24,446 nt of DNA from an uncultured Phycisphaeraceae bacterium (lineage in GTDB: Bacteria; Planctomycetota; Phycisphaerae; UBA1845), in NCBI GenBank assembly GCA_964637715.1, contig CAZWWW010000003.1:1-24446 (forward strand). The letters run 5' to 3'. Numbering within the stretch: the stretch's first letter is position 1; every line of letters starts with the position of its first letter. Made by a program: the position numbers and the translations under genes. Positions 1 through 24,446 of this stretch are shown here, one piece after another. Below the pieces are notes generated by a model. That model made no database searches, was not told the origin of the DNA, and worked only from the letters and a program-made list of their open reading frames with translations.

Positions 1-54
1 TGGCCCGCCCTACCCGAGTCGCAGCATGTTCTCCCGCCTAAACTGTCATGGACC

Positions 55-8742: not shown

Positions 8743-10722
8743 ATGTCGCAAGTCGTTAGTTACACACTGCCCGAACACTTGAGTGCCCGGCGCACCGCGC
8801 AGCGGCATGAACGCGTTGTGCAGATCGTCGGTCTGGCCGTTGCGCTGACGTGTTTCGTCGGGGCGGGTTTGCTGATCCGTCCGGTAAACGATATCCGTAA
8901 GTCGCGACAACTGGTGATCGATCCAAGTACGATCAAGGGGCTTCCGCCGACCATTGCACTGCTGGGCAAGCTGGCGACATTCCGGGCGCTGGCGATCGAT
9001 TGGGCGGCCATTCGCGCCGAGCGGCTCAAGGAAGAGGGGAAGGATTACGAAGCCCTGCAGTTATCCAAGACGGTCTGTTCGCTGGCGCCGCGGTTTCCCA
9101 AGCTGTGGGTCTACGCGGCGTGGAACATGGCCTATAACATTTCGGTCAATCAATACACGCCGGAGGAACGCTGGCAGTGGGTCAGTAACGGCATCAAGCT
9201 CCTCCGCGACGAAGGCATTCAATACAACCCGCGTTCCGTGACGCTCTACAAGGAACTCGCCTGGATTTACTGGCACAAGATCGGGGATTTCCTTGACGAC
9301 CATCACCTCAATTACAAACGAGCACTGGCCGTGGATATGGAACGCGTCCTGGGTGCCCCACCCGTTGTGGTCAACCAACAGGAATACTTCGACTGGTTCC
9401 GCTGGATTGTCGACGCCCCCCGCGATCTCGCCGCCTTTATAGCGTCCGATCCGGACATAAAGCAACTGGTTGTGGCGTTGAAGGGGCTTGATCTCGCCCC
9501 GGACCTGTCCTTGCTCGAGTTCGTTGCACGTAACATGCGTCCCGAGCTGAGCGTCGAGTCGCTGCGGGAAGAACCGACCCCGGAGAAATCCGCCAAAGCA
9601 AAGCGGCTCGCCCTGATCACATCGCCGGAGCACAAAGAGACCGCCGACCGACTACTGGCTGCGGTTCGCTCCGACGTACTGCGCAACAAATACAAGTTCG
9701 ATCTCGATTTCATGTTCAAGCTGATGACCGAGAAGTACGGTCCGCTCGACTGGCGGAACGCCTTTGCTCATTCTCTTTATTGGTCCAGCTACGGCGACCG
9801 GATCAACAAGGGCTACGCGCGCACCGATGCGGCCGATTCCATGAACACGGCGCGGTTCGTGTTTTTCTCGCTGCAGAACCTGATCACCCGTGGGCACATG
9901 ATCCTGTTCCCCAATTTCGACGATCCGTTTTCGTCCTATATCGAGCTGACACCCGACACCCGATACATTCCCTACCTCTATCAGACCTATCTAAGGCTTG
10001 GGAAAGAGCAATTCGGTGATGACCGGCGGTTCAAGGAAGGAACGCCGGGTCCGAACTATATGAACGGGTTCGTTACGAATATGGAGCAGTGGATCCAGTT
10101 GCTCTATTTCGAGGGCGGTGAAAAGAACCTCTCGATGGCCGAGAACTTCTACGCCTGGTTGCGGCAGAACAACCCCAGTCCGGACGGTTCGACACAAGAG
10201 CGTTACACGAAAACGCTCGACGATTTCGTCATGGGACAGATTCTTGCGCAACTGGACACCTGGCGGGCGGCGGCGGCCATCGTCAGGCAGTTTACGCGGC
10301 GTGCCTTGAAGGAGTTCAGTCTCGGGCAGATTCAGCCCGCCATCGGCGCCATGTCGCTCGCCCGCAAGTGTTATGACTATTGGATGGCACCCACGAACGT
10401 CGACATCACGGAACGGCGCAAGCTTCAGGAACCGGTGGTCATGCTGCGCGACGAGATCATCGAGTTCATTCAGGATCCGCGCTACGAGCCACTGTTCAAA
10501 GCCCGTTTGTGGAAGAACCTGCCGCTGCGCCAGCGTCAGATGGCCTATGACGCGCTCGCGCCTTATTTCAAGAAGCTTTGCGCCGAGCAGGATCCGCCCT
10601 GGTCGATCATACGTGCGTTCCCCGAACCGCCCGGAATGATCGAGTTCCGCAAGACCAATATCGAATACCGCGGCGCGCCGCGTCGAAAAGGCGTCGACGA
10701 AGGTAAGCGGTTCAAGAAATAA
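8743..10722 (+). CDS. Hypothetical protein (659 aa, N-terminal membrane anchor, W/Y-rich soluble domain)
   Basis: Long ORF on the same strand 155 nt after the ABC-2 permease. One predicted TM helix (VVQIVGLAVALTCFVGAGLLI). No motif recognised. Composition and codon usage are consistent with neighbouring genes. Confidence 0.6.
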   Translation: MSQVVSYTLPEHLSARRTAQRHERVVQIVGLAVALTCFVGAGLLIRPVNDIRKSRQLVIDPSTIKGLPPTIALLGKLATFRALAIDWAAIRAERLKEEGKDYEALQLSKTVCSLAPRFPKLWVYAAWNMAYNISVNQYTPEERWQWVSNGIKLLRDEGIQYNPRSVTLYKELAWIYWHKIGDFLDDHHLNYKRALAVDMERVLGAPPVVVNQQEYFDWFRWIVDAPRDLAAFIASDPDIKQLVVALKGLDLAPDLSLLEFVARNMRPELSVESLREEPTPEKSAKAKRLALITSPEHKETADRLLAAVRSDVLRNKYKFDLDFMFKLMTEKYGPLDWRNAFAHSLYWSSYGDRINKGYARTDAADSMNTARFVFFSLQNLITRGHMILFPNFDDPFSSYIELTPDTRYIPYLYQTYLRLGKEQFGDDRRFKEGTPGPNYMNGFVTNMEQWIQLLYFEGGEKNLSMAENFYAWLRQNNPSPDGSTQERYTKTLDDFVMGQILAQLDTWRAAAAIVRQFTRRALKEFSLGQIQPAIGAMSLARKCYDYWMAPTNVDITERRKLQEPVVMLRDEIIEFIQDPRYEPLFKARLWKNLPLRQRQMAYDALAPYFKKLCAEQDPPWSIIRAFPEPPGMIEFRKTNIEYRGAPRRKGVDEGKRFKK

Positions 10723-10915
10723 ACGCCTGTCCTATGCCGCGCGAGGCGTTCCACGAGGCCTTTCTACGTCGCTACAGCACAGTCGGTTTTCGTGTGGCGA
10801 TCCGTCGCGGGCGTTCCCCTTTACAAAGGGGAGATGGTGGGGGCCGTTGCAACACAATAGTTTATTGTATGCTATTGACCGGCGGCGCGGCATCGATTTG
10901 CTTCGGACCCCGTTC

Positions 10916-12167: not shown

Positions 12168-13052
12168 TTGTCTCACAATCAGCACGACCACGAGCCGCAC
12201 GCGGGCGACGATCACCAACAGGACGAGCACAACGCGTGCCACGACGACCCGGTAATGCGTCGGGCCGACCCCGCACGCGGCGGCGTCCATCAGTCGACGC
12301 GCCCCTCGGCCCTTGTGGTGGAGCTTCGGGCTCATGTGCCGTTTTCGGTCACGGCTGTCGCCATCGGATTGATCGTCGCCGGCGCGATCTGCATTATCGG
12401 GTTGTCCGGTACGCGCGGTGCGGGTTGGAACGAGGGCGTTAGCCCGGCCCATGGGCGTTCGGTCGGCACATCGCCGGTCACGAGCGAGGGCCACGACCAC
12501 GTTGACGACCGCGACGAAGCACATTCCCCCGCGCGTCTGTTCTTTCATCTCTTCCACCCGGCGCACATGCTGTTCTCCGCCACGGCGACGGCGGCCATGT
12601 TTTTTCGCTATGATCGCCGCCGGCTCAAGGCCATTATCATCGGGCTGATCGGGGCGGTCGGCGTGTGCGGCGTGAGCGATGTGGTCATGCCGCAGATTTC
12701 GCTCATGATCCTTGGAATTCATGCGCCGTGGCACATTTGTGTGTGGGAACATCCGGGGCTGGTCTTGCCGTTTGCTTTTGTCGGTGTGCTCGTGGGGATC
12801 AGTGCATCGGCCAGCGTGATGCACGGCACCATCGTGTCCCACTCGCTGCACGTCTTCGCCTCGACGATGGCCAGTATCTTCTATATGGTTGAGCCGCTCG
12901 GCGGTACGGCGTGGATCGACATCATCGGCAAGATGTTCATCTTTATCGTTCTGGCGGTCATGGTCCCCTGTTGCTTGAGCGACATTGTCTTCCCCATGCT
13001 CATGACCCGCGCGGGGCGGGACGAGTTCGAGAGAGAACCCCACGCCCATTAG
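12168..13052 (+). CDS. His-rich polytopic membrane protein (putative metal-ion binding/transport)
   Basis: TTG start preceded by GAGGAG (6-nt spacer). N-terminal ~40 aa are very His/Asp-rich (HNQHDHEPHAGDDHQQDEHNACHDD). ≥5 hydrophobic helices with intramembrane His (HLFHPAHMLF, APWHICVWEHPG, MHGTIVSHSLHVF). The overlapping 310-aa antisense ORF (12117..13049) has R/D/H-rich junk composition and is rejected. Confidence 0.55.
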   Translation: MSHNQHDHEPHAGDDHQQDEHNACHDDPVMRRADPARGGVHQSTRPSALVVELRAHVPFSVTAVAIGLIVAGAICIIGLSGTRGAGWNEGVSPAHGRSVGTSPVTSEGHDHVDDRDEAHSPARLFFHLFHPAHMLFSATATAAMFFRYDRRRLKAIIIGLIGAVGVCGVSDVVMPQISLMILGIHAPWHICVWEHPGLVLPFAFVGVLVGISASASVMHGTIVSHSLHVFASTMASIFYMVEPLGGTAWIDIIGKMFIFIVLAVMVPCCLSDIVFPMLMTRAGRDEFEREPHAH

Positions 13053-13084
13053 CGCATAAAATCTTTTTCACGTGCCGGTTTTTC

Positions 13085-13345
13085 GATGGTTGATCTCGGT
13101 ACGTGAGCTTGCTCTATCGCATTCTCAATCCAAACGTAGCAGCGGATCACCACGCATGCTCTGGTGGCATCGGAACCGGACGCTACCATCGGATTGAGCT
13201 TGCTCGAGCTGACAACGCCTTGTGCCCTACAAAAGATCAGCCGTTCTTAGAGCAAGCTCTATTATTATGTAGCGGTCGAATCACCGTTTCACCCGGAGAA
13301 TCGACTCGATACGGCGATACACAATAACGGATATTGCTGTAGCGG
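13085..13345. repeat. Low-GC, highly structured intergenic element (nested stems); its right ~55 nt are repeated inverted at 24390..24446
   Basis: Nested complementary pairs: GAGCTTGCTCT(13105-13115)/AGAGCAAGCTC(13247-13257); CTCAATC(13122)/GATTGAG(13190); GTAGC/GCTAC; CACCA/TGGTG; GCTGA/TCAGC. GC is well below the window average. Lies between convergent gene ends. The segment 13289-13343 is near-identical to the reverse complement of 24390-24446. Confidence 0.5.
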
Positions 13346-13349
13346 GCTG

Positions 13350-14249
13350 TCAGCGCAATACCACGAGGACATATACGCCCAGCATCCAGCAATAGAGGGC
13401 GAAATAGTGCAGCTTCGCCCGGCGCACCACGGTGAGTAGTACGCGCAGTGCGATCATGCCTACCAGGAAGGACGCCCCGGCACCGACCAGCAAGGGTCCC
13501 CAGGGGATGGCTTGGAACTGCTCGGGGGGCAGCGCGAGCGTATCGCGCAGCTTGAGCAGCGTTCCACCAAGGATAGCCGGTGCGGCGATCAGGAAGCTGA
13601 ACTCCGCCGCCCATTGGCGCCGAAGTCCGCAGTAGGACGCGACACACAATGTCGCCCCACTCCGCGATATACCGGGAAGAATCGCCCCCGCCTGGGCCAC
13701 CCCGACCAGCGCCGCCTGCCACCAACGGAAGCTCCGCCACCCGCGTCGTCCGCGGGGAACCACCGCGAGCGCTCCCAGCAGCGTGCCGGTTATCAGCAGA
13801 CACACGCCGATCCACGTCGGTCGATCGAAGGCCGACTCGAACGTGTCTTTGAACATCAGTCCGATCACACCGGTGGGTACGCAGGCAACGATTGCGAGCA
13901 GGATAATCCGAAGCGCGGGTCGAGCCGCCCATCTCGTTCGCTCGGAGTTTTTTGCCGATCCGGGCGGATCGATGGGGGCGCGCAATCCGCGCGGATCATT
14001 CAGTCGTTTGCCGTCGCGCACGGCGGCGCGGAGCAGTCGGCTAATCGGTTCACGAAACACGACCAACACCGCCAGCAGCGTGGCGATATGAGCGAGCACG
14101 TCGAAGAGCAGGAGTGTGGGATGGTTGGGATCAAGCTTTAACCACCGCTGCGCCAGGGCGAGATGGGCGCTGCTGCTGATGGGTAGAAACTCTGTAATCC
14201 CCTGAAGCACGCCGAGCGCGAGCGATTCCACATAACCCAGGTCGTTCAC
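13350..14249 (-). CDS. uppP: Undecaprenyl-diphosphate phosphatase UppP/BacA
   Basis: Matches the UppP N-terminal motif (LALGVLQGITEFLPISSSAHLAL) and is polytopic over ~270 aa. The ORF is open up to 14435, but that part overlaps the pgsA C-terminus. The GTG at 14249 overlaps the pgsA stop (GTGA) and is the likely start. Confidence 0.85.
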   Translation of the reverse strand: MNDLGYVESLALGVLQGITEFLPISSSAHLALAQRWLKLDPNHPTLLLFDVLAHIATLLAVLVVFREPISRLLRAAVRDGKRLNDPRGLRAPIDPPGSAKNSERTRWAARPALRIILLAIVACVPTGVIGLMFKDTFESAFDRPTWIGVCLLITGTLLGALAVVPRGRRGWRSFRWWQAALVGVAQAGAILPGISRSGATLCVASYCGLRRQWAAEFSFLIAAPAILGGTLLKLRDTLALPPEQFQAIPWGPLLVGAGASFLVGMIALRVLLTVVRRAKLHYFALYCWMLGVYVLVVLR

Positions 14250-14866
14250 GCCGCCGCGCTTTCTTGAAGGATGTAGCGGGAGCGGATCAAGTATTGAATC
14301 ATGGACAGGGCGGTCACAATGACCGTCGCCCACGCCAGGGTCGATTTGATCCAACCCCCGACACCGCCGAACGCCCCCGCCTGTTCCCGCGCGATAATGA
14401 ACAGAATCACCGGAACCGCGATGCTTTGCATCCACATCTTCAACTTGCCGTGGATCGACGCGCCGAACCGTTTACCCATTGATTCGTTGAATCCGCGCAG
14501 CCCGGTGACCAGCAATTCGCGCACCACAATCACCACGGCCATCCACGCATGGACACCCGTGACGTTGTGCCCGCTTTCATCAACGAACCCCGAGCCGACG
14601 AACAACACGAACGCCCCGCAAACGAGCACTTTATCGACCAGCGGATCCAGCACGCGCCCCAGCGGCGTAATCAGACCATATTTCCGTGCGATATAGCCAT
14701 CGAGAAAATCGGTGGCGGCGGCGATCACGAACAAAACCCACGCGGCGTCGAGCTTCCACGTCTCCGGGGCGCGTTGTACGTACTGAGACAGCAGCGCGAC
14801 AAAGATGATGGCCAGTACGAGCCGGGCCAGCGTGATCCGATTGGGTAGATTCAGTGAATGCCTCAT
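14246..14866 (-). CDS. pgsA: CDP-diacylglycerol--glycerol-3-phosphate 3-phosphatidyltransferase (CDP-alcohol phosphatidyltransferase family)
   Basis: CDP-OH phosphatidyltransferase signature DFLDGYIARKYGLITPLGRVLDPLVDKVLV. N-terminus LPNRITLARLVL. The ATG at 14866 overlaps the rimO stop. The ORF is open to 14935. Confidence 0.85.
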   Translation of the reverse strand: MRHSLNLPNRITLARLVLAIIFVALLSQYVQRAPETWKLDAAWVLFVIAAATDFLDGYIARKYGLITPLGRVLDPLVDKVLVCGAFVLFVGSGFVDESGHNVTGVHAWMAVVIVVRELLVTGLRGFNESMGKRFGASIHGKLKMWMQSIAVPVILFIIAREQAGAFGGVGGWIKSTLAWATVIVTALSMIQYLIRSRYILQESAAA

Positions 14867-16773: not shown

Positions 16774-17763
16774 CTACCGATCCCCAAAACCCTCAGGATG
16801 TGATTGGTGCCACGTCCATGCCGTTTGGATGATCTGCTCAATATCCGTGTATTCGGGTTTCCAACCCAGTTCCGTCTGAATCCCGGTGGGATCAGCGTAC
16901 AGTTCCGGGGGGTCGCCTAACCGACGCGACGCAGGCGCCGCGGGGATATCGTGGCCCGTAACGCTTCGCGATGCGTCGATCACCTGCTTGACGCTCGCGC
17001 CCTGACCCGTGCCCACGTTGTACGCGCGAAACGTAGCCGCGGGGTGACCCTCAACGGCGAGCCGGTGAACCGACGCCAGATCCTCGACGTGTACATAGTC
17101 GCGCACACACGACCCGTCGCTCGTGGGATAATCGACGCCAAAGACCTTGATCTCCTCCATTCGCCCCGCCGCGACTCGGAGCACGAGTGGAATAAGGTGC
17201 GTCTCGGGGTCATGGTCCTCCCCGATGTGCGCGTCCGCGGAGGCCCCGGCTGCGTTGAAATAACGGAGCGCCGTAGCCCCCAATCCCCACGCCGCGACGC
17301 AATCCTCGAGCACCCATTCGATGGCGAGCTTGGTGCGCCCGTAGGGGCTGATCGGTACCCGGGCCGCGTTTTCCGTGATCGGCACCGAGCTCGGTACGCC
17401 ATAGACGGCGCAGCTCGAGCTGAATACGAACGTTTTCACTTCGTGAACCCGGCACGCTTCGAGCAAACCGATGCTGTTGACAACGTTGTTGCGGTAGTAT
17501 TTGAGCGGGTCGCTGACGGATTCGCCCACCTCAGCCGACGCGGCGAAGTGCATCACCGCGTGAAAGTCCCCGTCTCCGAATACGCGGGTCAACAGGTGCG
17601 CATCGCCGACGTCGCCTTCAACAAGACGCGCCCGCTCATCCACGGCCGCACGATGACCCGTCGAAAGATTGTCGAGTACGGCCACGCCATGACCGGCTCC
17701 GCAGAGCGCACGAACGCAATGACTCCCGACATAACCCGCCCCGCCCGTAACCAGAATGTTCAT
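16774..17763 (-). CDS. galE: UDP-glucose 4-epimerase
   Basis: Rossmann motif MNILVTGGAGYVGSH and catalytic YxxxK (SPYGRTKLAIEW); length ~330 aa. The ORF is open to 17784, but MNILVTGG at 17763 matches the canonical GalE start. Confidence 0.85.
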   Translation of the reverse strand: MNILVTGGAGYVGSHCVRALCGAGHGVAVLDNLSTGHRAAVDERARLVEGDVGDAHLLTRVFGDGDFHAVMHFAASAEVGESVSDPLKYYRNNVVNSIGLLEACRVHEVKTFVFSSSCAVYGVPSSVPITENAARVPISPYGRTKLAIEWVLEDCVAAWGLGATALRYFNAAGASADAHIGEDHDPETHLIPLVLRVAAGRMEEIKVFGVDYPTSDGSCVRDYVHVEDLASVHRLAVEGHPAATFRAYNVGTGQGASVKQVIDASRSVTGHDIPAAPASRRLGDPPELYADPTGIQTELGWKPEYTDIEQIIQTAWTWHQSHPEGFGDR

Positions 17764-17770
17764 AGTGTGT

Positions 17771-18043
17771 CTACTCGACGACAATATCCGTCAACCGTGA
17801 GACGCTGATAACGACCGACCGCATCACCACCACCGCCCGACGGTTCACCGGCAGTTCTCCCTGGCATATATCGGCGACATAGGTCTCCTTGTTGGCATGT
17901 CCGTCACGGCAATCGTGCATGTCGGCGTCTTCAAGCACGAACGTATGGTCGGTGACCTCGGTCAGGCGACCTATGTAGACGATGGGCGTTCCGGTGTCGA
18001 GCACGACCGTGTCGCCGATCATTTGTTGTAATGCGTCGTGCAT
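17771..18043 (-). CDS. Small hypothetical protein (90 aa), possibly Sm/LSm-like β-barrel
   Basis: ORF immediately upstream of galE on the same strand. Alternating hydrophobic pattern GDTVVLDTGTPIVYIGRL...FVLEDA...RRAVVVMRSVVISVSRL is reminiscent of Sm folds. No strong SD seen. Confidence 0.4.
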   Translation of the reverse strand: MHDALQQMIGDTVVLDTGTPIVYIGRLTEVTDHTFVLEDADMHDCRDGHANKETYVADICQGELPVNRRAVVVMRSVVISVSRLTDIVVE

Positions 18044-18083
18044 GGTTGGTTTTGCTGATACTCCGGGGCAGCACCCCGCCTTT

Positions 18084-18223
18084 TAGTGCCGCGTCACAGC
18101 TGATGCTTAGGGTTCGTTGTGCGTGTCATGGGCAAACTTGTTTGCCCGTGACGGCCACCGGAACAACAGGACAAGCTGCTGCTTGCTCATGCTACCCAAG
18201 AAACAAGATGTGACAAAGCATTA
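18084..18223 (+). repeat. Structured ~140-nt repeat, copy 1a (family 1)
   Basis: ~80% identical to 19266..19405. Conserved central hairpin CATGGGCAAAC-TT-GTTTGCCCGTG (11-13 bp including one G·U pair if RNA). Terminal inverted GTCACA...TGTGAC. A partial extra fragment TCACAGTTGATG lies at ~18249. Confidence 0.7.
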
Positions 18224-18397
18224 GGCATCTTCAACAACCGTCAGCGTATCACAGTTGATGACAGCGTGGTAAGCTAACCGTGCGGTGGACAAACCGTATT
18301 AAACCCCAACTCGTTCGCGGCGCCCGGCCACAACCGCCCGCTAGGTCGCGCGCAGCGCCGACTTTACACCGCCCCCCTCCGCCTCGAACATGAGGGC

Positions 18398-19168
18398 ATG
18401 ATCGAAGCGGTCCTGTTCGATATCGGGGATGTGCTCATGCACTTTGAGACGTCACGGGCGCGGCGGTTTCTTGATGCCGCCGTGCGCCCGGTGTTCGACG
18501 GGTTGATCGAGCGGGGCCATCAACCACCGCCGTTTCGAACCTACGCCCGGCGCATCCGATGGTCGTTCGTTCGGGCGTTTATTCGATCGCGGATTGTTAG
18601 GCGAGAGGTGCCCACACTCGATGTGATGCGACGTGCCCACCAACGCATGGGTGTTTCGCTTTCCGCCGACGTGATGAATGAGCTTGCCATGCAGTGCATG
18701 CGCCCGTTCGAGCGGTTTTTCTCGACCAATCCGCAGGCGGTTCCCGTCGTGTCGCGGCTGCGTGATACGGGCTTCAAACTCGGCATCGTCTCGAATACGT
18801 TTTTCCCAGCATTCGCTATTGATGAGGTGCTCGAACGAGAGGGTCTGCTCGATCCGTTTCCCGTTCGCATCTATTCGTCCGACGTCGGGTTTATGAAGCC
18901 GCACCCGGGCATCTTTCGCGCGGCGCTGGATCGACTCGAGGTCGCACCGGAGCGAACCATGCACGTCGGTGATCTCATACGCAAAGACGTCCGGGGTGCG
19001 TCCCGCGTGGGCATACAGAGTGTGCTGATGCTACCAAAAGGGAAACGCCCATCCGGTCGGCCACAACCCGACTACGTGATTCATCAATTGACGGAATTGC
19101 TTTCACTGCCGGGCGTCAGGGAACGGGTCGGCACGTCGACACCTACGACCGTGCCCGCGCACCGCTAA
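18398..19168 (+). CDS. HAD-superfamily hydrolase (subfamily IA-like)
   Basis: Motif I LFDIGDVL, motif II IVSNT, motif III K in GFMKPHPGIF, motif IV HVGDLIRKD. GAGGG just upstream of the ATG. Confidence 0.7.
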   Translation: MIEAVLFDIGDVLMHFETSRARRFLDAAVRPVFDGLIERGHQPPPFRTYARRIRWSFVRAFIRSRIVRREVPTLDVMRRAHQRMGVSLSADVMNELAMQCMRPFERFFSTNPQAVPVVSRLRDTGFKLGIVSNTFFPAFAIDEVLEREGLLDPFPVRIYSSDVGFMKPHPGIFRAALDRLEVAPERTMHVGDLIRKDVRGASRVGIQSVLMLPKGKRPSGRPQPDYVIHQLTELLSLPGVRERVGTSTPTTVPAHR

Positions 19169-19265
19169 ATAGATGCTCACAAATGGGAAACCGAGCGATT
19201 TCACCTCGCCCTTGCGCCATAGGACACCCGTTTTCCTATTGGTTTCCCTATTGCGTGGAGTTATT

Positions 19266-19405
19266 TAGTGCACCGTCACAGCTTATTCTTAGAGTTCGTT
19301 GTGGGTGGCATGGGCAAACTTGTTTGCCCGTGACCGCCCCCCAGCAACACGGGCAAGCTGCTGCGTGCCCATGCCACCCCAAAAACAAGGTGTGACAAAG
19401 CACTA
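19266..19405 (+). repeat. Structured ~140-nt repeat, copy 1b (family 1)
   Basis: Same orientation as copy 1a. Identical core hairpin CATGGGCAAACTTGTTTGCCCGTG and ends TAGTGC...GTGACAAAGCA(C/T)TAG. Confidence 0.7.
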
Positions 19406-19629
19406 GCGTTAACGCACAGATTGTGTAGCGGCTGATCGCCCTCAACCTCCCCTTCGTGAAGGGTAGCGCGTGGGTCGGATCGTTACATGAAAACCGACTG
19501 TCCTGTGGCGTACAGCGGACGTGGGCGTTTGTCGGCTCATTGTTTGACAGGCAGCGCGCGGTATCCTGTTTCGCTTGTCGAATGAGGGTCGTCGAACCGC
19601 GAGGGGGCATAGGCGTAACGACAGCGATC

Positions 19630-20274
19630 ATGGATATCGATCTATCACCGGAACATCTCCTGTCCGCTTATGTATCCGGTGTGTTCCCGATGGCTGACGA
19701 TGAGGATGTCGTACGCTGGTTCGCCCCTGATCCACGGGCGATTATCGAACTCGACGCGTTCACCATGTCGCGCTCGCTTCGCGCGGTGGTGCGTCGCGGT
19801 ATCTTTGAGATTACCGTGAACCGCGCGTTCGAAGAGGTGATCGCCGCGTGCGCGGATCGACCCGACGGCACCTGGATTTCCGCGGAGATCGCAGACGCCT
19901 ATGTTCAACTGCACCGGCTCGGGTTCGCGCACAGTGTCGAGGCGCGGTGTGAGGGGAAACTGGTCGGCGGGTTGTATGGTGTGGCCATCGGGGCGGCGTT
20001 CTTCGGCGAGTCGATGTTTCACCGGGTGACGGACGCCTCCAAAGTCGCCCTTGCGGCGCTGGTGGGGCGCCTGCGAGATCGCGGCTTCAACTTGCTGGAC
20101 ATACAATTCATCACCGATCATCTGCGGCGGTTCGGCGCTGTGGAGATTCCCCGGTCCGACTACTTGCGGCGACTCCATCGTGCGGTTCAAGTATCTTGTG
20201 CATTCGACGACCGGATTGGTCCCACGGCGATTTCGGTTCAAAATGAACGTGACGACGCGACGACGTCTGATTAG
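19630..20274 (+). CDS. aat: Leucyl/phenylalanyl-tRNA--protein transferase
   Basis: Strong match to Aat along the whole length (LLSAYVSGVFPMADDEDVVRWFAPDPRAI...GKLVGGLYGVAIGAAFFGESMFHRVTDASKVAL). The six-frame ORF extends upstream to 19456 through repeat 1b. The ATG at 19630 (MDIDLSPEHLL) fits the family N-terminus. Confidence 0.88.
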   Translation: MDIDLSPEHLLSAYVSGVFPMADDEDVVRWFAPDPRAIIELDAFTMSRSLRAVVRRGIFEITVNRAFEEVIAACADRPDGTWISAEIADAYVQLHRLGFAHSVEARCEGKLVGGLYGVAIGAAFFGESMFHRVTDASKVALAALVGRLRDRGFNLLDIQFITDHLRRFGAVEIPRSDYLRRLHRAVQVSCAFDDRIGPTAISVQNERDDATTSD

Positions 20275-20282
20275 AGCGTTTA

Positions 20283-20392
20283 TCGTTTTCATGGGCCGGT
20301 TCTAGGACACGCGCACCGGCCTCGAGACCGGGAAGATCGCGCGGGCTGAAGCCCGCGGCTCGGAGCACAAAAACGGGAAATGCTCTAGAACA
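20283..20392 (-). repeat. ~110-nt structured repeat, copy 2a (family 2); inverted partner at 24247..24357
   Basis: The reverse complement of 24247-24357 aligns with 20283-20392: a shared TCGTTTTCATG end, a TCGAGACCGG block, and a near-identical hairpin CGCGGGCT-GAA-GCCCGCGGCTCGGA(G/A)CACAAAAACGG. Spurious ORFs 20111..20518(-) and 24066..24446(+) translate to related peptides, which confirms the repeat. Confidence 0.7.
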
Positions 20393-20441
20393 CGCACCAT
20401 CGGCATCGGACCGGGGCGTTGACCGGGAGGGTGTCGGTGTC

Positions 20442-22541
20442 ATGGGGTTGGCAGCCGGTGCGCAAGAGGGTTTGTCTGTAGTGCGGAAATCCACAAAACC
20501 ATCCCCCGTGGTTTTCACGGAGCAGCGACCGATGGATCAACCGGTGCGCGCTACGTCCGCCCAAGACGCAGAACACGCGTACACGGTCGCCGCATCGCCA
20601 GGCGCATCATCGTCACCTTTGCTCGTTGATCGGTCCGTACCGCCGGCTGGAAACGACCTGTTCCTGCGCAACATGCGTGCGCTGTGGCGGGTTGATCCGT
20701 GGTTGGCCCTGCGCGTCGACGCGGTTCGCGATGAGGATCGCCGGCCTGTGGAACCGGCGAAAAAAGGGGGATGGACGGTTCGGGCGGCGGTTCCCGACGG
20801 ACCCTCGCTGTACCTGCACAGCCGCTACGACCCGGTTGCCGAGGCACGCACCTTCGCCGAAGCAGTCACCATCGAAGACAAGTTCTGCTTCGTGGTGTCG
20901 GGGCTGGGTTTGGGTTATCACATATTGGCCTTGCACGAGCGATTGACCGGCGATGTGATTATCGTATGCGTTGAGCCCTCCATCCGTATGATCGCTACGG
21001 CGCTGACGCGCGTCGATCTCTCCGAGCTCATCGCGTCGCGTCGGTTTATTCTGCTCACCGACGATGACAAGGCCCGCCTGCATGACCGCCTTCAGGCGTA
21101 CAACACGCTCATTATGCTCGGGGCACAGTTTATCCAGCATGCGCCGTCGGTTCGGTTGGCCGCGTCCGAGCACGCCGCCGTGTCCCATGCGATCAGCGAA
21201 TTCGTCACCTACACGCGCATGACGCTCATGACCCTGGTGGCCAATTCGCAGATTACCTGCAAGAACATCGCCATGAACGCGGTAACCTATGTCTCGACCC
21301 CGCCGATCGACTTGCTGCGCAACCGTTTCTCCGGGGACCCGGCCATCATTGTCTCCGCCGGACCGTCGCTGCTCAAGAACATCGACCAACTCAAGGGACT
21401 GAAGGGGCGGGCGGTGTTGATCGCGGTTCAGACCGCGCTGCGACCGTTGATGCAGCGCGGGATCGTGCCGGACTTCGTGACCAGCCTCGACTTTCACGAA
21501 ATGTCGCGCAAGTTCTTCGAGGGCGTCGGTGACTTGTCGGACGTACATCTCGTCGCTGAACCCAAAGCGACTTGGCACGTGTTAGACAACTACCCCGGTC
21601 CGATCTCGCTGCTCGAGAACAGTTGGGCGCGGATGGTGCTGGGCGATGATCTCGCCGCCCGCGGCGGGCTCAAAGCCGGGGCGACCGTCGCGCACCTAGC
21701 GTTCTACCTGGCTGTTCATCTGGGGTGCGATCCGATCGTATTCGTCGGACAGGATCTTGCGTTTACCGGACATGTGTTCTACGTGCCCGGCGTGGAGATT
21801 CACCACGCCTGGCGCACGGAACTCAATCGGTTCAACACGATCGAACACAAGGAATGGGAACGCATCGTACGGAACCGGCCGATCCTGCGCAAGGTGAGCG
21901 ACGCCCAAGGCCGGAGTTTGTATACGGACGAACTGCTCTTTACCTATCTGGAGCAGTTCGAGACGGACGTCGCCGAGCTGCCCAATCGCGTGGTTGACGC
22001 TACGGAGGGTGGCGCGTGCATCCGCGGCACGGAAGCGATGAGTCTCGATCGCGTGGCGGCAGAGATATGCACGCGCGACATCGATCCGGAGCGCTTCGCC
22101 TACCGCCGTACGATGACCCGGCGGAACCCCGCCCGACTTCCCGCGGTGCGCGACGTGCTGACGCGCCGCATCGAACAACTGGACCGCGTGGTGACCACCT
22201 GCGATGAACTGCTGGAGGTGTTGGGCGAACTCGAAGGGCTGGCGGACGACGCGGATCGATTCAACAAACGCCTTTTGCGCGTGGATGAGCTTCGTGCGCG
22301 CATCGACAACGAACGCGACGCCTATCGCATCGTGAACGTCGCCACCCAACTGGCCGAGTTTCGGCGATTCTCAGCCGATAGGCGTCTGAGTACGACGACT
22401 CTGGACGACGCCGAGCGGGCGCGGCGGCAGATCAAACGAGACGTAGAGTTCATCACCGCGGTGCGCGACGGGGCGCTGACCGTCAAACCCATGCTCACTG
22501 CCTCCTGCGACCGCGTGGAGAAAGCGATCGAACGCTCATGA
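20442..22541 (+). CDS. DUF115 (MptE-like) / motility-accessory-factor (Maf)-like putative nonulosonic-acid glycosyltransferase
   Basis: 699 aa. N-terminal LFLRNMRALWRVDPWLALRV resembles the Maf N-terminus. Central IIVSAGPSLLKNIDQLKGLKGRAVLIAVQTALRPLMQRGIVPDFVTSLDFHE and FVGQDLAFTG match DUF115 core motifs as I recall them. GGGAGGG ~11 nt upstream of the ATG. Alternative start at the ATG at 20532. Confidence 0.65.
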   Translation: MGLAAGAQEGLSVVRKSTKPSPVVFTEQRPMDQPVRATSAQDAEHAYTVAASPGASSSPLLVDRSVPPAGNDLFLRNMRALWRVDPWLALRVDAVRDEDRRPVEPAKKGGWTVRAAVPDGPSLYLHSRYDPVAEARTFAEAVTIEDKFCFVVSGLGLGYHILALHERLTGDVIIVCVEPSIRMIATALTRVDLSELIASRRFILLTDDDKARLHDRLQAYNTLIMLGAQFIQHAPSVRLAASEHAAVSHAISEFVTYTRMTLMTLVANSQITCKNIAMNAVTYVSTPPIDLLRNRFSGDPAIIVSAGPSLLKNIDQLKGLKGRAVLIAVQTALRPLMQRGIVPDFVTSLDFHEMSRKFFEGVGDLSDVHLVAEPKATWHVLDNYPGPISLLENSWARMVLGDDLAARGGLKAGATVAHLAFYLAVHLGCDPIVFVGQDLAFTGHVFYVPGVEIHHAWRTELNRFNTIEHKEWERIVRNRPILRKVSDAQGRSLYTDELLFTYLEQFETDVAELPNRVVDATEGGACIRGTEAMSLDRVAAEICTRDIDPERFAYRRTMTRRNPARLPAVRDVLTRRIEQLDRVVTTCDELLEVLGELEGLADDADRFNKRLLRVDELRARIDNERDAYRIVNVATQLAEFRRFSADRRLSTTTLDDAERARRQIKRDVEFITAVRDGALTVKPMLTASCDRVEKAIERS

Positions 22542-24190
22542 GCGTTTCGGCTGTCATTCCCGCTGATCTTGACACCACGCCGCTGGGCACACGCAGTCGC
22601 CTGGCGGACGAGCTGTGCGGCGTGCCGGTGCTGCGCCGTACGGTTCAGCGCGTAACGCGGTGTGAGCAGATCGATGCCGTTATCGTGACCTGCCCGCCCG
22701 CTCAGCATGGGCGCTGCGCCGCGCTGCTCGCCGGACTACCGGTGCGCGTTCAGGCGGTCGACGCCGAAACGCCTCCGTGGCGCACCCTGGTTACTTCGGC
22801 CAGAAAATGGGCGCTGGATGGATGGCGCGGCGGTATCGGTGGAACGACCTGCTTCGACGAGTATGTGGACGCCCGGGTGCTGGCGGGGTTGCTTGGGGAG
22901 ATCGATGCCCGGGCGTTGTTCGTTGTCGCTCCCGGCGCGGTCGTGTTCGATTCCGATCTGGCGGACCGCATGATCGCCCACGGCCTGTCGACGCGTGAGG
23001 AGAGCAAACTCACCTTCGCCCAGACACCGCCGGGGTTGTCCGGGTTGCTGCTCAATGACGACATCGTCCGAGAGTTGGCCGAGCAATCCATTCCCATCGG
23101 CTGGGTGTTCAGCTATAAGCCTGACAGCCCCTTGAAGGACCTCGCGTTTCAGCCGTGCTGTTTCGAGGTCCCCCCGGAAGTTCGCTACGCCACGGGTCGG
23201 TTGATCGCCGATACCGACCGCACCGTAGCCCGACTGAAACGGTTGCTGAGCGCCTACAGCGACCCGGACGCCCGCACGACAGGTCGCTGGCTCATCGAGC
23301 GGGACGAAACGCACGTTGACGCACTGCCGCGCGAGATCGAACTGGAGCTAACCACCGACGACCCTTATCCCGAGAGCGTTCTTCGACCGCGCGGACCGAG
23401 ACTGGATCGATCAGGCCAAGCAGACGTTGAACTCGTCGAGCGGGTGATCGACGACTGGTGCCGGTTTGACGACACGTTGCTTGTTTTGGGCGGGTTCGGC
23501 GATCCGCTGCGGCATCCGGCCTTTGACCGTATTCTGGCCCTGGCGTCTCGCGGACTAAGCGATGGGACGCGGGGTTTGTGCGTGCGTACAACGGCGGTCG
23601 ATCTCGACGAGACGTGCATCGACACGATCATCGAACACCCGTTTGACGTGCTCAGTGTTGCGCTTGACGCCTGGACCGCTGAGCGCTATGCGTCGCTTCA
23701 GTCACCCGGCGCTACGGACCGATCCTTACTCGATGCCGTCGTCGGCCACCTTGATCGCTTGGCCGAACGGCGCATCGCACACCGCCACGTAACGCCCATT
23801 GTCGTGCCGGAGTTTACCAAAGCCGAACAAAACGTTGACGAGCTGGACGCGTTTCACGACGGGTGGCTCCGCAAGGTCGGTGCAGTCTGCATCACCGGTG
23901 CTGGTCATTACGCCGGACAATGTCCGAACCATGCCGTGATGAACATGGCTCCGCCTGCGCGAACGCCGTGTCGTCGGATCGTGTCGCGTTGCATGGTCCT
24001 CTGCGACGGGCGCGTCGTCGCCTGCGATCAGGACTTTCGTGGCTTGCACCCCCTTGGGAACTTGAATGAGCAACCACTTGAAACGATCTGGTCCGGTGAA
24101 TCGTTCATGCGAATGCGTAGCGCTCACCAAGCCCTGGATCTCAGCCCTTTTCCGTTGTGCGGTGCGTGCGACGAATGGCATAGACCGTAG
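22538..24190 (+). CDS. Fusion protein: N-terminal cytidylyltransferase-like (CMP-sugar synthetase fold) + radical-SAM-like half-barrel lacking CX3CX2C + SPASM/twitch-like Cys-rich C-terminus
   Basis: ATGA overlap with the upstream gene. N-terminus AVIPADLDTTPLGTRSRLADELCGVPVLRRTVQRV...IDAVIVTCP resembles KdsB/NeuA/SpsF-type nucleotidyltransferases. Mid-region LVLGGFGDPLRHPAFDRILAL resembles the radical SAM GGEPLLhP motif, but there is no CxxxCxxC anywhere. C-terminus CRRIVSRCMVLCDGRVVACDQ...PLCGACDEWH is SPASM-like. Confidence 0.6.
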   Translation: MSVSAVIPADLDTTPLGTRSRLADELCGVPVLRRTVQRVTRCEQIDAVIVTCPPAQHGRCAALLAGLPVRVQAVDAETPPWRTLVTSARKWALDGWRGGIGGTTCFDEYVDARVLAGLLGEIDARALFVVAPGAVVFDSDLADRMIAHGLSTREESKLTFAQTPPGLSGLLLNDDIVRELAEQSIPIGWVFSYKPDSPLKDLAFQPCCFEVPPEVRYATGRLIADTDRTVARLKRLLSAYSDPDARTTGRWLIERDETHVDALPREIELELTTDDPYPESVLRPRGPRLDRSGQADVELVERVIDDWCRFDDTLLVLGGFGDPLRHPAFDRILALASRGLSDGTRGLCVRTTAVDLDETCIDTIIEHPFDVLSVALDAWTAERYASLQSPGATDRSLLDAVVGHLDRLAERRIAHRHVTPIVVPEFTKAEQNVDELDAFHDGWLRKVGAVCITGAGHYAGQCPNHAVMNMAPPARTPCRRIVSRCMVLCDGRVVACDQDFRGLHPLGNLNEQPLETIWSGESFMRMRSAHQALDLSPFPLCGACDEWHRP

Positions 24191-24246
24191 GCACGCATGG
24201 CGACCACCGGACCGTCGCTTCCTCAATCAAGTGTTGACCGGCAGAA

Positions 24247-24357
24247 TACCTAACGCAGGTTCCGTTTTTGTGTTCCGAGCCGCGGGCTTGAGCCCGCGCG
24301 ATCGTACCGGTCTCGATGGCGGTTCAACCGCCAAAGACCCGGCACATGAAAACGAAA
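24247..24357 (+). repeat. ~110-nt structured repeat, copy 2b (family 2), inverted relative to 20283..20392
   Basis: See copy 2a. Hairpin CGCGGGCT-TGA-GCCCGCG. Begins ~57 nt after the stop of the 22538..24190 gene. Confidence 0.7.
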
Positions 24358-24389
24358 AACGCTCGCCATGCCGCAAGAACGGACCCGAT

Positions 24390-24446
24390 TGTCTACAGCA
24401 ATATCCGTTATTGTGTATCGCCGTATCGAGTCGATTCTCCGGATGA
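24390..24446. repeat. Inverted partial copy of the right end of the 13085..13345 element (family 3), truncated by the window end
   Basis: The reverse complement of 24390-24446 is TCATCCGGAGAATCGACTCGATACGGCGATACACAATAACGGATATTGCTGTAG. This matches 13289-13343 with one mismatch. It likely continues beyond the window. Confidence 0.65.

Follow-up and report, generated by a model that had tools for sequence, protein, structure and literature searches.

Two small transposon-like repeats probably make up the structured intergenic region downstream of uppP in an uncultured Phycisphaeraceae bacterium

Why should the gap that follows uppP on this contig be so long, so low in GC and so strongly folded, and is it one structured element, possibly an RNA gene, or something else? 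The window, by which we mean the whole stretch of DNA that was analysed (24,446 nt), holds this gap at 13053-13349 (297 bp), between an open reading frame on the plus strand (12168..13052, without a Pfam match) and uppP/BacA on the minus strand (Pfam PF02673, E = 1.7e-73; stop codon 13350-13352, likely start GTG at 14249). A sequence-only reading of the window had called the gap overlong with a GC dip, had seen complementary segments with an 11-bp outer stem in it, and had reported an inverted partial copy of it at the window edge, and each of these observations was reproduced. GC content is 50.5% in the gap versus 60.1% in the window. A perfect 12-bp complement joins 13105-13116 to 13248-13259, and the minimum-free-energy fold of 13085-13345 reaches −93.9 kcal/mol versus −73.6 ± 5.0 for shuffled sequences (z = −4.0, 0 of 200 shuffles equal). 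The segment 13289-13342 matches 24393-24446 in inverted orientation over 54 nt at 98% identity, including a core (13293-13342 against 24393-24442) in which 50 of 50 bases are identical (BLAST E = 7e-24). As regards the inverted match and the fold, the earlier description is accurate and lies far above chance.

The window is a whole NCBI contig, and sequence beyond its right end was obtained from a JGI contig (Ga0256747_1002873 of metagenome 3300023444, here L001), which was found via the product of the last complete gene (22538-24190). L001 matches window 17654-24446 at 100% identity and adds another 3.35 kb. Here the inverted match goes on past 24446, as the sequence-only reading had proposed to check, and reaches 97 nt at 96.9% identity (L001 6740-6836 against window 13342-13246). 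Another two copies, both more diverged, are found at L001 7193-7289 and 8052-8149, 0.4 and 1.3 kb past the window end, in both orientations. The unit that is repeated is 13248-13341 and not the whole of 13085-13345, the extent originally given to the repeat; the left half of that interval is a separate, related element.

Our conclusion, which we hold to be probable, is that the gap contains two MITEs, namely a 90-bp copy of a family designated A (13250-13339, minus strand) and an older 101-bp copy of a family designated E (13105-13205), both presumably mobilised in trans by a TA-duplicating DDE transposase of the IS630/Tc1-mariner type. The features of the gap and of the right-hand copy at the window edge are as follows.

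13105-13205, plus strand: E element, 101 bp, with termini GAGCTTGCTC... and ...GAGCTTGCTC; flanks gt/ga, not TA
13248-13249, no strand: TA flank at the right end of copy A2, read from the sequence; TA stands at this junction in most copies
13250-13339, minus strand: A2, family A body (nhmmer E = 3e-31; 96.9% identical to A1 and 87.8% to the Ga0114931 consensus; fold z = −3.45)
13250-13273, minus strand: right TIR of A2, ...GCTACATAATAATAGAGCTTGCTC, containing the quasi-palindrome GAGCAAGCTC, the pairing partner of the E terminus at 13105-13116
13275-13305, minus strand: internal imperfect hairpin of A2, GTCGA...TCGAC, predicted in every A-copy fold, preceded by GTAG on the plus strand and showing no compensatory changes
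13316-13339, minus strand: left TIR of A2, CAGCAATATCCGTTATTGTGTATC, identical at 18/26 ungapped positions to the opposite end in reverse complement (0 of 5000 shuffles)
13340-13341, no strand: TA flank at the left end of A2, read from the sequence; the preceding base is a pyrimidine in 19/20 copies
24394-24395, no strand: TA flank of A1, read from the sequence
24396-24446, plus strand: A1, family A, cut by the contig end; its whole body is L001 6743-6832, equal to window 24396-24485, and is followed by TA

The stems that the sequence-only reading had assigned to a single multi-stem element at 13085-13345 are borne out by the predicted fold, but the interval is not one element; it consists of E, A2 and a 44-bp spacer. 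The predicted multi-stem fold and the GC dip arise from the inverted ends and internal palindromes of AT-richer elements, and the "outer stem" forms because the left terminus of E pairs with the related right terminus of A2, E and A having in common the terminal quasi-palindrome GAGC(TT/AA)GCTC. Every other helix in the gap forms within a single element, from that element's inverted ends or internal palindromes. Outside both elements, about 94 bp of ordinary intergenic DNA remain.

Copies of family A were collected initially with the 20-mer GTATCGCCGTATCGAGTCGA, a probe common to the three copies seen at that stage, which gave matches on 17 contigs of metagenome Ga0114931. A family profile search yielded 26 distinct A copies on 19 contigs, 22 of them from Ga0114931 and 4 from this organism, the latter counted over only ~28 kb (window plus L001). 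All copies have the same sharp ends with unrelated DNA on either side, and the aligned copies give a 90-bp body consensus, CAGCATGGTCCGTTATTGTGTATCGCCGTATCGAGTCGAATGGCCGGATAAAACGGTGATTCGACCGCTACACAAAAAGAGAGCTTGCTC. Identity to this consensus is 95.6-100% for 17 copies, 74-86% for 5 older Ga0114931 copies and 80-94% for the 4 copies of the window organism, an age structure that would be typical of a transposition burst.

The inverted ends of family A are imperfect, about 70% identical over ~24 nt, and the termini read TA-CAGCATGGTCCGTTATTGTG and TA-GAGCAAGCTC. The number of ungapped matches in the first 24-26 nt (17-18, from 17/24 to 18/26) was reached by no shuffle. In addition, each A copy matches its own profile in reverse at E ~1e-6, indicating that the inverted symmetry extends over the whole element.

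TA stands on both sides of the body in nearly all of the 20 aligned A copies, and the flanks read YTA...TAR: a pyrimidine (C or T) precedes the left TA in 19/20, and a purine (G or A) follows the right TA in 16/19. These outer flank bases vary independently between the two sides, which rules out a duplication of 3 or 4 bp and agrees with one of 2 bp, the TA, within a palindromic YTAR target. A 4-bp CTAG duplication of the IS5 type, as in MITEPsy1, had been considered and was rejected, the outer bases being unlike on the two sides. The TA is so constant that it could formally belong to the element itself, and what argues otherwise is two nested cases only: a young A copy on L020 occupies precisely the TA at the end of an older A copy, and on L013 the TA at the end of a family B copy (see below) has likewise received an A copy. 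Removal of the insert together with one TA gives back the usual ...C-TA-G junction at both places, and the two nested insertions serve as internal empty sites. The sequence-only reading had named a dispersed or MITE-like repeat as one of several options, and it is this option that is borne out, by the 26 copies with sharp boundaries and unrelated flanks, the TIRs, the TA within YTAR and the nested insertions at TA.

Comparison with relatives gave a further view of the gap. The closest uppP outside this organism is 71% identical, and gene order on the downstream side of uppP is not conserved. Among homologues with a named source, the nearest belong to Phycisphaerae metagenome bins and show 58-61% identity, which makes the host an uncultured Phycisphaerae-like planctomycete. 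On the relatives' contigs L023-L026, the gap after uppP measures 22-118 nt and the downstream gene differs, so that the sites are not orthologous, while the gene order rimO-pgsA-uppP is kept in L025 and L026 and pgsA-uppP in L024. No family A or E copy was found on L023-L026. Subtraction of both elements and 4 nt from the gap of the window (297 − 90 − 101 − 4) leaves about 100 nt, which falls within the 22-118 nt of the relatives. No orthologous genes were found between the Ga0114931 contigs and the window (tblastx, all fetched loci), and hence no filled-versus-empty pair there.

Three more families, B, C and D, are present elsewhere in the window.

10775-10872, plus strand: D1, family D, 98 bp; flanks cTA and TAt; only the left terminus (~25 nt) A-like; TIRs 13/26
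18086-18221, plus strand: C1, family C, 136 bp; flanks tTA and TAg; TIRs 15/26, p = 0.001
19268-19403, plus strand: C2, family C, 136 bp; flanks tTA and TAg; TIRs 18/26, 0 of 5000 shuffles
19412-19505, minus strand: D2, family D, degenerate, adjoining C2; TIRs not significant, p = 0.21
20274-20385, plus strand: B1, family B, 112 bp; flanks tTA and TAg; internal GC-rich hairpin; TIRs 18/26, 0 of 5000 shuffles
24253-24364, minus strand: B2, family B, 112 bp; one flank decayed

In the sequence examined, copies number 26 for A, at least 5 for B (further ones at L001 7911-8018, on L013 and on L021) and 2 each for C, D and E, with sizes of 90 bp (A), 101 bp (E), 112 bp (B), 136 bp (C) and 94-98 bp (D). 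TIR matches in the first 26 nt amount to 16-18 for B, 15-18 for C, 14 for E and 13 for D1, all at p ≤ 0.003. Family E is 76% identical over 100 nt to L020 1866-1965, from another metagenome; its TIRs (14/26) have a shuffle p of 0.0014, and its RNA fold has a z of −3.0 for the plus strand and −4.4 for the minus strand. Its termini in common, its inverted repeats and its second copy suggest that it is an element, two copies being known, and the copy in the window looks old, with flanks gt/ga that would have decayed from TA. Family D was also tried as a diverged A and rejected, since the A profile matches D only at E = 0.66 and 5.5 and the likeness is limited to the terminal ~25 nt. The termini of A, B and E begin with (C/G)AGC, those of D at the left end only, and those of C differ (GTGC/ATGC). 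Judging by these ends, a common enzyme, or a set of related ones, probably acts on A, B and E. A wider reading, in which a single TA-targeting transposase lineage has given rise to at least three and perhaps five MITE families in an uncultured Phycisphaerae-like lineage (A, B and E clearly, D partly, C doubtfully), in the manner of a Stowaway-like radiation, is possible, and we offer it tentatively as less probable than not.

MITEs are defined as small elements with inverted ends, target duplications, stable folds and no transposase (PMC3184786, PMC11602168, PMC3733652), and range from about 50 to 800 bp (PMC11602168, PMC3733652). The elements described here are short, non-coding, AT-richer units with imperfect TIRs of ~16-26 nt. 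At 90-136 bp they are too short to code for a transposase, and inverted ends of the expected length (at least about 10-15 bp) are found in A, B, C, E and D1, those of D2 being not significant. Target duplication is seen for family A and is lacking from the window copy of E (gt/ga), and the copies are dispersed with unrelated flanks. They are intergenic and in mixed orientation relative to genes, occur at both the 3' and the 5' ends of genes, and insert into one another's TA flanks. The arrangement YTA-body-TAR is that of TA insertion with a 2-bp TA duplication, the mark of the IS630/Tc1-mariner group, whose members insert at TA and duplicate it (PMC2170065).

From this TA duplication signature we infer a partner of the same type, that is, an IS630/Tc1-mariner-type DDE transposase, with end binding and cutting as putative activities. 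Encoded elsewhere in the genome, such an enzyme would bind both inverted ends, excise the element and insert it again at the TA of a YTAR (CTAG-like) target, and a 2-bp staggered cut at the TA would lead to its duplication on insertion. No transposase gene with matching ends was found, 17 of 17 metagenome matches to the 20-mer being element-sized or cut by a contig end. In viral contigs the core 20-mer had no match, and a tandem-junction 18-mer had one, which lies within coding sequence and was therefore put down to chance. A scan with the 20-mer core of a genome collection whose species representatives do not include the source lineage returned three matches (Paraburkholderia, Streptomyces; unrelated genera) that were likewise taken as chance.

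The strong folds could also be read in another way, as the sequence-only reading had done in suggesting a structured ncRNA gene family: the repeats would be multicopy genes for small structured ncRNAs and the stems functional helices. Folding is indeed better than in shuffles (z between −2.7 and −4.4 for elements taken singly, −4.0 for the interval as a unit), the elements are intergenic, and a sigma-70-like site (GTGAAA-17-CATAAT) lies inside the A copy of the window. However, good folding is expected of any element with inverted ends, the promoter-like hexamers are unconserved (family consensus GATAAA...ACACAA), no terminator-like site was found in or beside the element, and orientation to neighbouring genes is mixed. 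A search of the whole window against Rfam gave no match at gathering scores, and for the gap at E ≤ 10 it returned only nqrA-Marinomonas (16.3 bits, gathering 95.5) and SCARNA18 (12.6 bits, gathering 40), both at chance level. RNAalifold on 20 A copies predicted 26 pairs, none with a compensatory change (covariation term +0.48), a test of low power since most copies are near-identical. The 17 near-identical copies, the TA flanks and the nested insertions are features of transposons and not of RNA genes, and we regard multicopy RNA genes as highly improbable. Even less credible is the proposal that the A copies at 13250-13339 and 24396-24485 form a functional pair that inverts the 11-kb block between them (uppP, pgsA, rimO, galE, aat and the DUF115 module). 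A1 and A2 do lie 11 kb from each other in inverted orientation and agree at 97% over 97 nt, and the idea of a large-inversion substrate, also raised by the sequence-only reading, is possible in principle for any 90-bp inverted pair, but it found no support. This pair is not special, because other A copies lie 0.4 and 1.3 kb past the window end in both orientations and copies of B, C and D lie within the block; moreover, three independent records (NCBI, L001 and the Logan contig L002) have the same right-hand junction, no recombinase gene is adjacent, and homologous recombination would have only 90 bp to act on, a short substrate.

Improbable too are REP/BIME-like palindromes spread by an HUH tyrosine transposase (RAYT or TIRYT) that acts on single-stranded hairpins in place of a DDE transposase. 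On the plus strand, the A body has GTAG two bases upstream of a 31-nt imperfect palindrome (13271-13305), classic GTAG-tagged GC hairpins are present at L027 1966-2043, and GTAG-tagged repeats as well as tyrosine-transposase-associated inverted-repeat families have been reported from Planctomycetes (PMC3733652). REPs, on the other hand, are units of 20-40 bp (PMC3733652), whereas the repeat unit here measures 90 bp, its boundaries lying 22-34 nt beyond the internal hairpin. It is not a single GTAG-tagged palindrome of 20-40 bp, the GTAG and palindrome forming only an internal part, and inverted ends with symmetric TA in a palindromic YTAR point to a staggered double-strand cut of the target. 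IS200/IS605-type enzymes are not known to make target duplications or to need inverted ends. A search of limited extent showed no RAYT gene. A last possibility, unlikely in our estimate and additional to transposition, is that the host may have retained these transposon-derived elements as cis modules, that is, as 3'-end hairpins, terminators or protein-binding sites. A2 begins 8 nt past the uppP stop codon, lies in sense to that gene and would be co-transcribed with it, A3 ends 19 nt upstream of a response-regulator gene (L001 7311), and the quasi-palindrome TAGAGC-NN-GCTCTA is operator-like. Elsewhere, MITEs can alter mRNA stability, supply promoters or be cut by RNase III (PMC10969869, PMC3733652), and Correia and ERIC elements are used by their hosts as cis modules in other bacteria (PMC10969869, PMC3184786). 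Position and orientation relative to genes are inconsistent, however, a T-run after the hairpins is absent and no terminator was called, and the 20-mer core only seems conserved because it served to pick the copies; those picked without it differ there, L020a by 3 mismatches. For uppP itself, the insertion of A2 would put a long hairpin in the 3' untranslated region, and an effect on the stability or termination of its transcript is speculation on our part.

The assemblies break at repeats. The right ends of the NCBI contig and of the Logan contig L002 lie inside family A copies, as do several contig ends of Ga0114931, and L002 breaks on its left within a family B copy. The contig end at the window edge is explained by the family A repeat, which breaks the assembly, and the window-edge copy is just another family A insertion. 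The NCBI contig, L001 and L002, three records of the organism that are identical, show the same junction at this right-hand copy (A1). The first 54 bases of the window fall within a TIR-bounded stretch that is complete on L027 and of which a single copy was seen. At the contig's left end, L027 1966-2043 carries GTAG-tagged GC hairpins of the classic kind.

In size, architecture and TA flanks taken together, the present elements most resemble Correia, ERIC and IS630-derived elements. Like the MITEs derived from the IS630/Tc1-mariner group (the Stowaway type of plants; in bacteria, IS630-family elements such as ISY100), they are short and non-coding, with inverted ends and TA flanks; this putative link is drawn from the target-site signature. 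Their terminal sequences match no element compared, and their host lineage is Phycisphaerae-like. Tc1-type ends read TA-CAGTG..., to which the present ends, beginning with CAG or GAG straight after the TA, are similar. Correia elements have TA duplications and no known transposase, and their ends, which are probably unrelated in sequence to those described here, come from an unrelated host. According to Tenzen and Ohtsubo 1991, as cited in PMC2170065, IS630 prefers TA in CTAG, a target echoed here by the YTAR preference. Correia/NEMIS elements of Neisseria are alike in length (about 104-157 bp; PMC3184786), in their ~26-bp inverted ends and in their many copies and subtypes, and they are intergenic, often gene-adjacent and co-transcribed with long hairpins (PMC10969869), a likeness to the present elements that is architectural only. 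A likeness in IHF site, promoter or RNase III cleavage would be conjectural. MITEPsy1 of Pseudomonas syringae (IS5 family; 100 nt, 18-nt inverted ends, CTAG or YTAA target; PMC3189936) is very similar in size and target motif, but it duplicates 4 bp and the present elements TA only, with independent outer Y and R. REP/BIME sequences are also intergenic dispersed repeats with a GC hairpin, and family A contains GTAG and a palindrome, yet REPs are single hairpins without inverted ends or target duplications, in contrast to units of 90-136 bp that have both. ERIC elements of Enterobacteriaceae share a size of about 127 bp, inverted ends, TA at both termini and a transcribed intergenic setting (PMC3184786); their copies are old and largely immobile, unlike the 17 family A copies that are 96-100% identical, and both host and sequence differ.

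The families are thus new members of a well-known kind of bacterial repeat, and the finding is an ordinary one, not a new RNA gene or riboswitch. It removes a false ncRNA or riboswitch lead, the "structured element" being two small transposon-like repeats, and it adds TA-targeting MITEs to a phylum for which none were found described in the literature searched. As the families fragment assemblies of the lineage, we advise that they be masked before searches for ncRNAs or regulatory motifs in Phycisphaerae-like bins. The biological value is modest, and its most interesting residue is the apparent density and diversity of the families, with their nesting and gene-bracketing. Were this density to extend across the whole genome, it would rank with the highest on record for bacteria, and MITEs of this phylum are hardly described. 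Nine copies take up ~3.8% of the contig, with four more in the next 3.4 kb, and five of the larger intergenic gaps of the window hold at least one copy. Copies of B bracket a gene pair (MptE-like plus radical-SAM) and copies of C bracket a HAD hydrolase gene, and these bracketing pairs could be MITE-bounded composite transposons.

The elements gather in the same gaps, inserting beside one another. In 5 of the 17 Ga0114931 metagenome contigs matched by a family A 20-mer (L006, L008, L014, L017 and L020), two copies of this short MITE-like repeat were located roughly 0-500 nt apart, usually one young (near-consensus) and one old (diverged), and on L020 the two copies abut, with a TA common to both. 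Copies of families B and C occur in pairs around genes in the window, where D2, a family D copy, adjoins C2 with a spacing of 8 nt:

18086-18221, family C copy C1, 86% identical to C2 and in direct orientation with it
18398-19168, HAD-hydrolase gene, enclosed by C1 and C2
19268-19403, family C copy C2
20274-20385, family B copy B1, inverted relative to B2
20337-20363, 27-nt GC hairpin TCGCGCGGGCTGAAGCCCGCGGCTCGG, internal to the family B copy
20442 or 20532 to 22541, MptE-like/DUF115 gene, between B1 and B2
22538-24190, radical-SAM/SPASM gene, between B1 and B2
24253-24364, family B copy B2

The arrangement of B1, B2 and the enclosed two-gene module looks like that of a composite transposon; on its outer side, however, B2 is not flanked by TA, so no duplication attests to the module having moved as one. 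The hairpin TCGCGCGGGCTGAAGCCCGCGGCTCGG was also found alone and 100% identical at L025 12477-12503 and L026 12224-12250, an intergenic site in a relative so distant that its uppP shares only 61% identity; L008, L010 and L021 carry versions about 88% identical. The hairpin may be an independent and older unit, REP-like or terminator-like, that family B captured.

On L001, a contig that continues the window beyond its right end, 19 nt separate the end of a diverged family A copy from the start of a response-regulator gene, whose promoter or 5' untranslated region the copy could possibly influence:

L001 7193-7289, diverged family A copy
L001 7311-7913, response-regulator gene (HTH_17 + Response_reg)

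At the left contig end, window 1-54 is part of a ~209-bp stretch, present as a whole at L027 1934-2142, whose inverted ends are perfect over 14 bp (GGGTCCATGACAGT). This stretch has the classic look of a REP/BIME, containing two mutually inverted GTAG-tagged GC hairpins (GTAGGGCGGGC...GCCCGCCCTAC).

Regarding the window genes, no Pfam match was obtained for two sizeable ORFs, 12168-13052 (+), whose 294-aa product is rich in histidine at its N-terminus and has hydrophobic segments, and 8743-10722 (+), encoding 659 aa. The longest uppP ORF starts from GTG at 14435, adding ~62 N-terminal residues in which Pfam likewise gave no match; translation probably begins instead at GTG 14249, in a 4-nt overlap with the stop codon of pgsA (14246-14249).
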